Source: a virus. From it: a DNA stretch of 64,000 nucleotides. How positions within the stretch are numbered: the first letter of the stretch is position 1; the number at the start of each line of letters is the position of its first letter. A program made the position numbers and the translations under genes. A model generated the notes under the pieces. That model ran no database searches. It was given only the letters and a program-made list of their open reading frames with translations, and was not told where the DNA came from. The stretch spans positions 207,192 to 271,191 of IMG/VR virus record IMGVR_UViG_3300050821_002957; one strand, given 5' to 3'. This document shows positions 42,134 through 48,852 of this stretch, piece by piece.

Positions 42134-42472
42134 TCAACCACAGAGAGGAACTTTATTCTCTTCCTTTTCAACAACTTGAATCCACTTTCTCAGGTAGTAA
42201 CGAGCGTCGTATTTTGTGCTCGTTTCTGCTTGAACAAATGGCGTTGGTTTGCTTTCAAGAATGAGTGGCATCGGCGTGGCTTTCAACATTGCGAGTTTGA
42301 AACGAACGTCGGGCCGTCTATCGAATCGCACGATCATTTCAGGAGCGTATTGAATCGCTGTACCGCCCGGTGTGGATCGTTGTTTAAGAATTTCGATTTT
42401 GAGCGAGTCGTTCATTCTGCTCCAGCATGTACATTTCAAAATACACTGACGACGTGACATCGTTCTCCGCAC
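42134..42472 (-). CDS. hypothetical protein
   Basis: 112-aa ORF. Confidence 0.35.
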   Translation of the reverse strand: MRRTMSRRQCILKCTCWSRMNDSLKIEILKQRSTPGGTAIQYAPEMIVRFDRRPDVRFKLAMLKATPMPLILESKPTPFVQAETSTKYDARYYLRKWIQVVEKEENKVPLCG

Positions 42473-42992
42473 ACGCCAATGCGAGTTTGAAAAACTTTTC
42501 GTCAGTCTTCATGTACTCTTGAAGTTCTGTGATTGCTTGTGCTGCACTCTTAAAAAGAATGCCAATGCCGCCAGCTTCACGCCATGCTTTGATGTTCGCT
42601 TCAAAGTCGTCAATGAGGATGTCGCCGGTCTTTGCGTACTGAGCTTTTTCTTTTTTGTGTGCGACGATCTTTACGAGATCCGGTGTCCACATCAACTCTG
42701 GAAGTTCATTGTCAAGCCAGATGCGTTTGTGCTCATCACTCTTTTCAATGTGCGAAGACGCAGCAGAAAGAATGCCGGGTGTTGCGACTCGGCTGTATCG
42801 CACAAAATTGAACAGTGCTCGTGCGCCATCGACCCACGGAAGATCCCGAAAGAAATATGGATGATCGTTCAACATCGCCCACTTTTCTTCATTGGACCAC
42901 TTCATATTGTGATCCCAAGCCTTGCCGGTTCGACGAGTATAATCACCATCAAATTCGCACAACACGCCATCCATATCAAACCAGACTATCAT
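42384..42992 (-). CDS. 5'(3')-deoxyribonucleotidase-like HAD phosphatase
   Basis: motif I FDMDGVLCEF at N-terminus, GDILIDD near residue 135. Confidence 0.6.
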   Translation of the reverse strand: MIVWFDMDGVLCEFDGDYTRRTGKAWDHNMKWSNEEKWAMLNDHPYFFRDLPWVDGARALFNFVRYSRVATPGILSAASSHIEKSDEHKRIWLDNELPELMWTPDLVKIVAHKKEKAQYAKTGDILIDDFEANIKAWREAGGIGILFKSAAQAITELQEYMKTDEKFFKLALACAENDVTSSVYFEMYMLEQNERLAQNRNS

Positions 42993-45689: not shown

Positions 45690-46177
45690 GCTGTATCATG
45701 GCAGCAGTAGATATAGCTTTACAAGAAGCAAAGACAACCCCATTGACACCGGGCGCTCATGTCGGTCATGTGGATCTGGAGAAGTACGGCCCAAGGTGGG
45801 GAATACTTCAGACCATCACACCAACCGAAGCAACTGTCGAGATGAAAGACGGTGAAATCATGACTTGGGAAACTGAGGGAATGGTCGATATCGAACGTGT
45901 CGATTCACTCATCAAAGAAAACCAAGAAAAAGTGATGAAGGAAATCATGTTGCTTAATTCCCTGGACGAAAACAACAATGGTGTAGCATTAGAATCCAAT
46001 CCAATGATGATCGGTGGCGCTGACTTGCCGACTCCTGGTTGTGACTGTGATCACTGTGCTACGTTCACACCAGAACAACACGAACAAGCTCGGTTGGTGG
46101 CAGAACAGATGGGGCTGGACATTGATCCGAAATCTTCGACCTATCTTCAATTGAAAGCCGCTGCTGATCTCAACTAG
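45659..46177 (+). CDS. hypothetical protein
   Basis: 172-aa ORF. Confidence 0.45.
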   Translation: MNLSYENLMASCIMAAVDIALQEAKTTPLTPGAHVGHVDLEKYGPRWGILQTITPTEATVEMKDGEIMTWETEGMVDIERVDSLIKENQEKVMKEIMLLNSLDENNNGVALESNPMMIGGADLPTPGCDCDHCATFTPEQHEQARLVAEQMGLDIDPKSSTYLQLKAAADLN

Positions 46178-46542
46178 TCGTTCCAATCTGGAAGTTCCAC
46201 AGTTTGTCCTTTGAGACTGTGGAACGAGTCTGATAGGAATTGAATTTTGCCATCGGTTACATACGAATGGCAACGTTTTGTAGGATCATCACGCCAAACC
46301 ATAATGCTTGGTGTGAAGGTCGGCCTGACGATATCGTTATTCCATCCCCAGACAGGCTCTTGGCCTTTCACTCGTACACCGTGCAGGTATTCGCAGCCGG
46401 GACAGTGAAAGGCCATTTGAATGTCATCTGCTTCTTTGCCGTCGATGGCATTGTCGAAGCGATAAATTTTGTCGCCCACTACTGAATGCTCCAACCACAA
46501 GAATTTTTTAATCCTGTTTTGGTAGGAGTATTCTTCGGCCAA
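46174..46542 (-). CDS. hypothetical Zn-binding protein (CPGC...RCHS)
   Basis: 122-aa ORF. Confidence 0.45.
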   Translation of the reverse strand: MAEEYSYQNRIKKFLWLEHSVVGDKIYRFDNAIDGKEADDIQMAFHCPGCEYLHGVRVKGQEPVWGWNNDIVRPTFTPSIMVWRDDPTKRCHSYVTDGKIQFLSDSFHSLKGQTVELPDWND

Positions 46543-46884: not shown

Positions 46885-47262
46885 TTATTTCTTGTCTGCG
46901 TCAGCGACCACTTTGAATTCACCTGAAGGATCACGACATACAAGGACTTCATGCTTCTTGCCTTCGGAGTCTTTCAATTTTTCTTTTTTGCAAGGACTGG
47001 TCGGCTCGACATTATAGCCAGCATAGATCGGGAAGCCCCAATAGCTGTACGGATACCAACCATACCCTAAGCCGAAATTGAATCCATAATAACCACCATA
47101 GTAACCACGAACAACCACTGGAGGACGGTAGACTGGCCCATGATAAACCGGCGAAGAATGAAATGCAGGCGCAGGGTGTGAGTAACCACCGCCGCCACGA
47201 TGTTGTGCAAATACAAATGACGAACAAAGTAGAAGTGTGAGTGAAAGAATAAAGGTCTTCAT
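46885..47262 (-). CDS. secreted Gly/Tyr-rich protein with signal peptide
   Basis: MKTFILSLTLLLCSSFVFAQH then GGGGY...YYGGYYGFNFGLGYGWYPYSYWGF; CTAAATAG box 4 nt upstream. Confidence 0.5.
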   Translation of the reverse strand: MKTFILSLTLLLCSSFVFAQHRGGGGYSHPAPAFHSSPVYHGPVYRPPVVVRGYYGGYYGFNFGLGYGWYPYSYWGFPIYAGYNVEPTSPCKKEKLKDSEGKKHEVLVCRDPSGEFKVVADADKK

Positions 47263-47352: not shown

Positions 47353-48108
47353 TCATGATCCATTGCAATTTTCACAGTTGACCGCTGGAATAGGATACTC
47401 GCCGCAGACGCACAAACGCTCTCTACGCTGTTCAAATGCTTCCTGAAGGTTCGGAGTGCCTGGAAGCGCCGCAAGCTCTTGGAACGCTTCTCTTACGTTT
47501 TTTATCACGTCCGAATTTTGTGTCCCTTCTTGAATGTGCTTGTGCAGCAGTTCGGTCGGCTGATAGTTGTGCAAAAAATGCCACAGTTCCATTGCACCCG
47601 ACATCAGAGCCAGATCACGATAGAAATGTGGAGCCTGCTTGAAACGGTTCGCCTTCTTGCTTCCCTTTTCGTCGGGATCGCCACCAAGCGCACGATAAGC
47701 TGTGTCGTAGTCGGCCATGACACCATCAAGATCGACATAGACAACACCAGTCGTTTTGGACCAGTCGATTTCTTTTAATTTACGGATGCAGCTTTCGGCG
47801 TCTTTGTAGATGATTGCGATTCCCCCGGCATTGATCCACTCAGAGCAATTCTTGGTGTTGTCGTCGATCAGCACATCACCCTTTTTGCAGAGCTTTTGTT
47901 TGTCCTGAGGATAGGCGACGACATGAACCTTCGGCCCTGTCATGTGCAGATGCAGGGCGACCCACTCGATTTTGTCATCGTAGCTGGTCTTTAGGTAATT
48001 CGATTTTGCGCTTAAGATTCTGATGTCTAGCATACCAGTATCTATCGTAGCATACATAGCACTGTCAGCACAACATACACCAATGAAGAAACGTGATGCC
48101 ATCCTCAA
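47353..48108 (-). CDS. circularly permuted deoxyribonucleotidase-like HAD paralog with C-terminal Zn finger
   Basis: N-half aligns to residues ~70-160 of 42384-42992 (KGDVLIDD...AGGIAIIY), C-half to residues ~1-70 (VYVDLDGVMADYD...FYRDL). Confidence 0.5.
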   Translation of the reverse strand: MRMASRFFIGVCCADSAMYATIDTGMLDIRILSAKSNYLKTSYDDKIEWVALHLHMTGPKVHVVAYPQDKQKLCKKGDVLIDDNTKNCSEWINAGGIAIIYKDAESCIRKLKEIDWSKTTGVVYVDLDGVMADYDTAYRALGGDPDEKGSKKANRFKQAPHFYRDLALMSGAMELWHFLHNYQPTELLHKHIQEGTQNSDVIKNVREAFQELAALPGTPNLQEAFEQRRERLCVCGEYPIPAVNCENCNGS

Positions 48109-48261
48109 ACTCGATTCGCTAGAGTGGGCGTTCGAGTGTCATCTGAAATCAAAACTTCCAAGTGATCTGAATTTGACAGACGAGTTTATGACTCTGTTCT
48201 ACGAGCGGACGAAGGAATTGAAAGATGCAATCCAGGCTCTACCGGGCGACAAGAATCACGG

Positions 48262-48852
48262 CTAGTTGTTTTTGTAGCTGCGATTGAAGACGCTTACAAT
48301 TTCTTCGGTGAATGAAAGCCTGAACGACGGCGGCTGGACGGCTGTATAATCCCATCCCATAGCAACGGCATAACTCAGTGAGATGTGCGGAACGAACCTA
48401 TGATACACCATGTCTACACCGTGCTCAACTGCAAAATTCCATTGCCGGTCCAGTTCGTTGCATTCAAAAAATAGAGCGAAGGCAGGTCCAATGGTTCCAA
48501 GAATGTAAGTTTCTGGGGCGATGTGAATTTGGCGACGGTCTGGAATGTATTCAGGAGGGAGTTGATTGCAGGCACAGACAACACTACAGTGGAGCTTTTC
48601 TTTTGCAAGAGGACTCGGAATGTGTTGATCCGAAAGCCATTCGTACAAAAGGTTGCGTGATTGAGTTTCTAGCGCCCGAAGTGAATAAACAGCCTCTTCG
48701 TGGTTTGCCTTTCGGTCTGATGCAACTTGGACCAGCACTTGATTATTTAGCTTTCTGTGAAGAGAGTTGCAGGCGGTGGAATGAACTGGAAATGTGGGCC
48801 TTTGTAATGAAAGCCGTGGACGTAACTCATGGTTTGGCAGGAATTGTACCAT
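48262..48852 (-). CDS. 2H phosphoesterase superfamily protein (LigT / Acb1-like fold)
   Basis: two H-x-S-x motifs (HCSV, HISL) about 75 aa apart. Confidence 0.45.
   Translation of the reverse strand: MVQFLPNHELRPRLSLQRPTFPVHSTACNSLHRKLNNQVLVQVASDRKANHEEAVYSLRALETQSRNLLYEWLSDQHIPSPLAKEKLHCSVVCACNQLPPEYIPDRRQIHIAPETYILGTIGPAFALFFECNELDRQWNFAVEHGVDMVYHRFVPHISLSYAVAMGWDYTAVQPPSFRLSFTEEIVSVFNRSYKNN

Follow-up and report, generated by a model that had tools for sequence, protein, structure and literature searches.

Circular permutation in an apparently functional NT5C-like HAD phosphatase gene of a viral genome

Does a viral reading frame that carries the two halves of a HAD phosphatase in reversed order encode an enzyme with a rotated catalytic domain, or is it a scar left by rearrangement, decay or faulty assembly? 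The HAD phosphatases form one of the largest and most thoroughly studied enzyme superfamilies, for which the motif order I-II-III-IV is treated as defining. The frame in question lies in a 64,000 nt stretch of viral DNA (positions 1-64000, here called the window). Its recurrence, conservation and pattern of substitution indicate a genuine, selected natural circular permutation in an apparently functional gene, and we hold with good confidence that the gene at 47353-48033 (minus strand) encodes a functional Mg2+-dependent NT5C-family HAD phosphomonoesterase with a circularly permuted catalytic domain. It is a topological variant new within a known enzyme family, NT5C.

Reversed order of the catalytic segments in one reading frame

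A mechanical ORF listing of the window places an uninterrupted frame of 251 aa with a TTG start at 47353..48108 on the minus strand. The parts of this frame, and the second NT5C gene of the window, are as follows.

42384..42992, minus strand: NT5C paralogue of normal order (202 aa; Pfam NT5C E 1.3e-10, residues 1-152)
47353..48033, minus strand: probable permuted NT5C-family HAD phosphatase gene (226 codons, ATG at 48033, stop at 47353-47355)
48034..48108, minus strand: upstream 25 codons of the mechanical ORF, including its TTG start; not conserved as protein in L003, L006 and L009
47767..48033, minus strand: C-half of the HAD core, now N-terminal (aa 1-89), with strands S2-S5, helix α5 and motifs II-IV
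47746..47766, minus strand: 7-aa linker DWSKTTG leading from helix α5 to strand S1, absent from all normal-order relatives
47548..47745, minus strand: N-half of the HAD core, now internal (aa 97-162), with S1, flap, helical C1 cap and core helix α1
47356..47547, minus strand: family-specific tail (aa 163-226), [HN][VL]xEAF repeats followed by CxC-x10-CxxC

Residues of the permuted protein are counted from M26 of the mechanical ORF (226 aa) unless stated otherwise. This methionine, encoded by the ATG at 48033 and lying 75 nt downstream of the TTG, is most likely the translation start, judging from the orthologues, all of which have MLDIRILSAKS as their N-terminus (P0001, L006 and P0002 start with MLDIR). 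The 25 codons upstream of it run into the beginning of a conserved small gene on the opposite strand, and 48034..48108 is probably an untranslated promoter or leader. A clear Shine-Dalgarno sequence is absent before most genes of the window, the permuted gene included, which makes its absence here uninformative.

BLASTP of the mechanical ORF (in its own numbering) against the in-window paralogue yields two HSPs, which come in swapped order: residues 31-113 correspond to paralogue residues 74-159 (38% identity, E 1e-14), and residues 122-~190 match paralogue residues 2-~70 (31% identity in the N-half, E 2e-9). Closer normal-order relatives give far stronger swapped HSPs (P0003: E 1.7e-41 and 5.6e-29), and the swap is far beyond chance. 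In all normal-order relatives, query residues 3-89 correspond to subject residues ~63-150 and query residues 97-162 to subject residues ~2-70, again as swapped HSPs, and the tail (query 163-225) corresponds to subject residues ~150-203. The C-half is 70% identical to residues 63-149 of P0003 (E 1.7e-41), and the N-half is 57% identical to residues 2-62 of the same protein (E 1.5e-21). Overall, an arrangement N-C-tail has become C-N-tail, the cut falling in the loop that connects core helix α1 (...ELWHFLHNYQP) to strand S2 (ILSAKS); the HAD core is rotated and the tail stays C-terminal, making the change formally a swap of two adjacent segments rather than a rotation of the whole protein.

All four HAD motifs are present: I (DxDx[TV]) as D101-x-D103 in the N-half (47725-47733, within V-D101-L-D103-G-V), II (S/T after S2) as S8, III (K) as K45, and IV (DD) as D57 and D58 (47860-47865), the last three in the C-half. 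Their order along the chain is II-III-IV-I, with S1 as the fifth strand, instead of I-II-III-IV; we read this departure as a variant in topology and not as another fold. If the normal-order relatives are rotated in silico to the permuted order, they align with the window protein from one end to the other, and D101, D103, K45, D57, D58 and the AGG motif are invariant in that alignment, with S or T at S8; D101 and D103 are kept in all permuted and normal-order relatives. The linker varies among the permuted orthologues (DWSTLTG, DWSQMTG, DWTKLTG, DHHKIG). Its codons (47746-47765) contain a 7-bp direct repeat, GACTGGT-CCAAAAC-GACTGGT, also flagged as a weak hairpin, which could be chance or a footprint of rearrangement.

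The tail is homologous, CxC...CxxC included, to the tails of the normal-order proteins P0003 and P0004, and the closest normal-order relatives carry the same one (HVQEAF...TPNLQEAFEQR...LCYCSEFPIPAEECTNCKAG). It matches no Pfam family. Tails in this NT5C subfamily (P0003-P0021) hold 2-4 copies of [HN][VL]xE[AT]F spaced ~12 residues apart, and a CxC-x10-CxxC knuckle follows the repeats in some members only. The window protein and L006 share an additional 13-aa repeat-like insertion in the tail. We considered whether this insertion could be what remained of a second C-half after its deletion, and rejected the idea in favor of an extra degenerate [HN]VxEAF copy, the copy number varying from 2 to 4.

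A preliminary description of this DNA had assigned the normal NT5C-like order to 42384-42992 and the reversed order to a single frame at 47353-48108. Both assignments hold, the former through a Pfam NT5C match above the gathering score over residues 1-152 and the latter through the swapped HSPs with no stop between them. The in-window paralogue on which that description relied is sufficient to expose the swap, but the positional orthologues P0003, P0004 and P0006 are better comparators. The cysteine-bearing tail that it noted is likewise present, though not as an addition peculiar to the permuted form. Two details require correction: the TTG start gives way to the ATG at 48033, where the orthologues begin, and the count of codons from the in-frame stop to the TTG is 10, where 9 had been given.

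Family membership and predicted structure of the permuted protein

The Pfam profile NT5C (PF06941) matches the protein at 29.0 bits (cutoff 24.8) over profile positions 84-145 only (62/180), and the N-half searched alone gives a weak match to profile positions 3-20 (E 0.14). PHROG 2643 (5'-3' deoxyribonucleotidase) matches with E 4.5e-26 in two stretches. Profile and fold searches thus detect only half of such a protein, and annotation pipelines will under-call or mis-split genes of this kind.

An AlphaFold2 (AF2) model of the 226-aa protein, built from an alignment of 24 real sequences of which five cover the N-half, has a mean pLDDT of 89.3 and a pTM of 0.72. The local confidence of residues 1-160 is 92-98, with only those five sequences behind its N-half part (strand 97-101 and helices 109-156, pLDDT 92-96). 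Five strands are predicted (3-9, 36-39, 54-57, 72-75 and 97-101, the first four at pLDDT 96-98), together with flap-like bridges and alternating helices (17-29, 42-48, 60-68, 79-88, 109-115, 124-132, 137-140 and 147-156). This matches, element for element, the model of the normal-order control P0003 (pLDDT 88.7, pTM 0.73), in which the chain runs S1, three cap helices, α1, S2-α-S3-α-S4-α-S5-α5, tail. The flap and a helical C1 cap follow S1 in the permuted protein, where helices 109-115, 124-132 and 137-140 precede α1 (147-156), as helices 14-20, 29-37 and 42-45 precede α1 (52-62) in the control. The tail is modeled at pLDDT 59-81 as helices plus a small hairpin at the cysteine cluster. S1 and the cap are predicted to dock onto the C-half of the same chain, a reading of the model that rests on the high local confidence, the assignment of 97-101 to the sheet and a pTM equal to that of the control. 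The check by structure prediction proposed in the preliminary description is favorable, in that the core model is confident and reassembly within one chain is predicted.

The four HAD motifs and the C1 cap are common to the permuted protein and the family defined by PF06941 and PHROG 2643 (human cytosolic and mitochondrial 5'(3')-deoxyribonucleotidases, cdN 6g2n; bacterial/phage 3bwv), and the C-half superposes on NT5C structures at 1.9-2.1 Å over ~80 residues, but only half of the protein aligns sequentially (TMq ~0.33) and the permuted protein has an extra tail. A Foldseek search of the PDB gave no match at E<1e-3, a result that is expected for a permutant and is not positive evidence of one. 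In BFVD, phage NT5C proteins match over 88-98 columns (TMq ~0.33-0.35). No protein of the same topology appeared in the PDB or BFVD fold searches, in which sequential matching covers one half, and phmmer against PDB sequences found no match.

By established HAD chemistry, the chain would present its active site in the order S2 (S8), S3, K45, S4 (D57/D58), S5, α5, linker, S1 (D101, D103), flap, C1 cap, α1, tail. D101 would be the nucleophile that forms the aspartyl-phosphate, and D103 the general acid/base that protonates the leaving nucleoside; S8 and K45 would bind the phosphoryl group, D57 and D58 would bind Mg2+, and the choice of nucleoside would fall to the cap helices. A (deoxy)nucleoside monophosphate is the probable substrate, as presumed from family membership only.

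Natural circular permutation is documented for other enzymes, including DNA methyltransferases of jumbo phages (PMC7824862) and the barrels of GH70 relative to GH13 (PMC11046441). In these cases, as here, catalytic motifs are kept in rotated order within a conserved fold. They concern other folds and families, whereas here both topologies persist as positional orthologues of ~60-68% identity. We found no report of a permuted HAD protein in the literature searched, though an earlier mention may exist. A natural pair of topologies offers material for studying the tolerance of the Rossmannoid core to new termini, the effects of permutation on folding, cap dynamics and specificity, and the DNA-level origin of circular permutation; we rate its interest for protein evolution, structural biology and annotation practice as moderate to good.

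Recurrence, selection and genomic neighborhood

A homologue search of 5.8 billion proteins returned 18 relatives, among which P0001, P0002 and the fragment P0005 have the permuted order and P0003, P0004, P0006 and the rest the normal one. P0001 occurs on three ENA contigs from three samples (L003-L005) and P0002 on a JGI contig (L009); another JGI contig, L006, the one extra locus from a JGI metagenome scan, carries a permuted copy with 85% identity. An exhaustive HMMER search of 1.84 billion representatives added P0022, a divergent permuted fragment (55% identity) with the linker DHHKIG and a cysteine-free tail. In total, the permuted arrangement is found in at least 5 other independent metagenome assemblies from two data providers, at 55-85% amino acid identity; other permuted loci are 73-76% identical to the window at the nucleotide level. 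The set is small, and two of its members (P0005, P0022) are fragments.

Among the best 150 of 1924 HMMER matches, an unbroken match across the C-to-N junction is seen in P0001 and P0022 alone; other matches that appeared to span it proved to be normal-order proteins with N-terminal extensions, or tandem fusions. The loci compared comprise 78 of normal order and 6 permuted (the window plus five), in a set that includes 80 NT5C loci from IMG/VR. A homologue search seeded with P0022 gave no further permuted members, and scans of IMG/VR and GTDB genomes with permuted-clade patterns gave nothing. A neighbor-joining tree of the re-permuted core places the permuted sequences in a single clade inside the normal-order diversity; bootstrap support is 100% for the four close members alone and 61% once P0022 is added.

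No full-length permuted copy has a broken reading frame, and both halves are under purifying selection. For the window compared with L003, dN/dS (Nei-Gojobori) is 0.116 for the whole gene (dS ~0.9), 0.047 for the C-half (dS ~1.0), 0.121 for the linker plus N-half (dS ~1.0 in the N-half) and 0.30 for the tail.

The neighborhood of the gene, in minus-strand order, consists of the Acb1-like gene, the small divergent gene, permuted NT5C, two small ORFs and DUF6527/BubE:

48262..48852, minus strand: Acb1-like 2H phosphoesterase gene (Pfam PF23474 Acb1, E 1.6e-13)
48083..48265, plus strand: small divergent gene (60 aa, MKKRDAILKLDSLEWAFECHL...), antisense and upstream of the permuted gene
46174..46542, minus strand: DUF6527/BubE gene (PF20137, E 8e-15; phrog_3362, E 7e-35)

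The small divergent gene matches nothing in Pfam or PHROG; L003, L004, L005, L009 and L002 each have an orthologue of it, likewise antisense and upstream of NT5C. Acb1 upstream of NT5C is conserved in L009, L002, L010 and the P0003 contig, and DUF6527 downstream of NT5C in L002, L003 and the P0003 contig. Normal-order P0004 (L002) lies among the same neighbors on a 370-kb ENA contig of jumbo-phage scale, with flanking DNA 69-75% identical to that of the window on both sides, and the P0003 contig and L010 (P0006) have the same Acb1-NT5C arrangement. Because neighbors and flanks match those of normal-order loci, the permuted gene is, on this evidence, the positional orthologue of the normal-order gene. 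P0003, P0004 and P0006, from related giant phages, share with it the locus, the EAF-repeat tail and 58-68% identity in both halves, but differ in having the order N-C-tail with motifs I-II-III-IV rather than C-N-tail with II-III-IV-I. The second NT5C paralogue is retained beside the permuted gene, as it is in normal-order genomes.

That the window's closest relative lies on a metagenomic contig of 370 kb is consistent with an uncultivated jumbo phage. Small ORFs with neither PHROG nor Pfam annotation crowd the window, which has no DNA match in INPHARED; blastn of the locus against INPHARED phages likewise gave no match. One ORF of the neighborhood (46885-47262, minus strand, 125 aa) begins like a signal peptide and is rich in Gly, Tyr and Pro in its middle (HRGGGGYSHPAP...GYYGGYYGFNFGLGYGWYPY), with no family match. 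The Acb1-like gene is of the anti-CBASS type and lies upstream of NT5C in every locus of this phage group, in both orders.

These observations bear on four other accounts of the gene. That the window contains an assembly, chimera or sequencing artefact is effectively refuted and deserves practically no credence, given that the same junctions occur in contigs of at least 5 separate samples and two data providers at the nucleotide divergence given above. Another possibility is that two partial genes were fused and the product is decaying or neutral, a duplication remnant or recombination scar without phosphatase function: a truncated tandem pair would leave just this arrangement, and the lineage is rare, with 0/78 other phage NT5C loci permuted. 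Yet both halves evolve at dN/dS 0.05-0.12 at a dS of ~1, all catalytic residues are kept across orthologues 55-85% identical, no full-length copy has lost its frame, and the gene persists alongside a second NT5C paralogue just as its normal-order counterpart does; we regard decay as very improbable. The preliminary description had likewise argued against a mis-called tandem pair, and the same C-half/N-half order in independent assemblies, with purifying selection on both halves, bears this out. Its proposal that an NT5C-like HAD phosphatase has undergone natural circular permutation is supported by recurrence, selection, conservation of the catalytic residues and the confident AF2 model.

The two remaining accounts accept the permutation and question what the chain forms or does. 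With a linker of only 7 residues, the HAD core might reassemble between chains, the short connection forcing a domain-swapped dimer or oligomer; the AF2 model is a monomer prediction, and many permutants and HAD enzymes are generally known to be oligomeric. Against this, the monomer model is as confident as that of the control (pTM 0.72 vs 0.73, core pLDDT 92-98), and by textbook geometry the end of α5 and the start of S1 would lie at the same sheet edge, about two strands apart, a distance that 7 residues should suffice to bridge, which leaves obligate swapping a rather unlikely outcome. Somewhat less unlikely, though still improbable in our judgment, is that the protein is permuted and active but not a dNMP nucleotidase, and instead trims terminal phosphates from the linear products that Acb1 makes of cyclic-oligonucleotide immune signals, or acts on another phosphoester. 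NT5C-type enzymes accept 5' and 3' phosphates, and Acb1 is immediately upstream in all loci of the phage group, normal-order and permuted. This adjacency is, however, confined to one phage clade and may be plain synteny: none of 80 more distant IMG/VR loci has Acb1 beside NT5C, and we found no paper linking the two. We have downgraded it as evidence of functional coupling for that reason, and an intrachain NT5C-type phosphomonoesterase is the reading we prefer.

Origin of the permuted arrangement

The permuted gene probably arose in place from the normal-order N-C-tail gene of the same locus in related giant phages. Both halves are about equally close (58-68%) to the same normal-order relatives, and this similar relatedness, with the paralogue distant from both (31-38%), points to one in-place event and not to a chimera; the in-window paralogue was rejected as the source of either half on the same identities. 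The most likely route would be an in-frame tandem duplication to N-C-N-C-tail followed by loss of the first N and the second C, a single event in the ancestor of a small phage clade, the product then being kept by purifying selection. Two observations support duplication and truncation. The stretch around the cut is present twice: the new N-terminus has it as a degenerate MLDIR, and the N-half ends with it as NYQP. A fused tandem NT5C (P0125, N-C-N-C) also exists elsewhere in the family. P0125 (362 aa) and P0066 (736 aa, two copies) are duplicated intermediates of the type that this route needs, but they are ~30% identical, lie outside the permuted lineage and keep both full copies; within the permuted lineage itself, no N-C-N-C-tail intermediate was found. 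In the second copy within P0125, motif I reads GPNG, a degenerate form.

The linker DWSKTTG was compared with the 5' UTR of the normal-order gene as a possible translated remnant, and no convincing similarity was seen in L002, L010 or L011; its origin is not traceable to 5' UTR or tail sequence.

A different impulse for the rearrangement might lie in endonuclease genes at the 5' end of NT5C in two normal-order loci. L002 has, at 1027-1683, a free-standing endonuclease gene encoding a 218-aa protein with HTH plus HNH/EndoVII-like regions (phrog_3322, E 1.9e-20), and the P0003 contig has, at 1598-2527, a gene for an unrelated 309-aa protein with faint LAGLIDADG_3/HTH matches. Both are wedged between the small gene and NT5C and overlap the NT5C start codon, whereas all permuted loci, and also normal-order L010, have no endonuclease gene at this position. 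Two unrelated endonuclease genes at the same spot suggest a hot spot of cleavage or insertion at the NT5C 5' end, near the motif-I codons. The rearrangement might then have come from aberrant repair of a break at that end; alternatively, it might have been favored by selection, since moving the motif-I segment ~300 bp inside the gene would have destroyed the target-site context and made the allele refractory to invasion. We regard a tie between the permutation and homing-endonuclease traffic as speculative and of low probability. If true, it would make this a change of protein topology driven by selfish-element conflict, and it would also mark the first natural circular permutation on record for a HAD protein. 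The normal-order protein whose gene adjoins the HNH gene, P0004, has an unusual motif I, WCDQDG.
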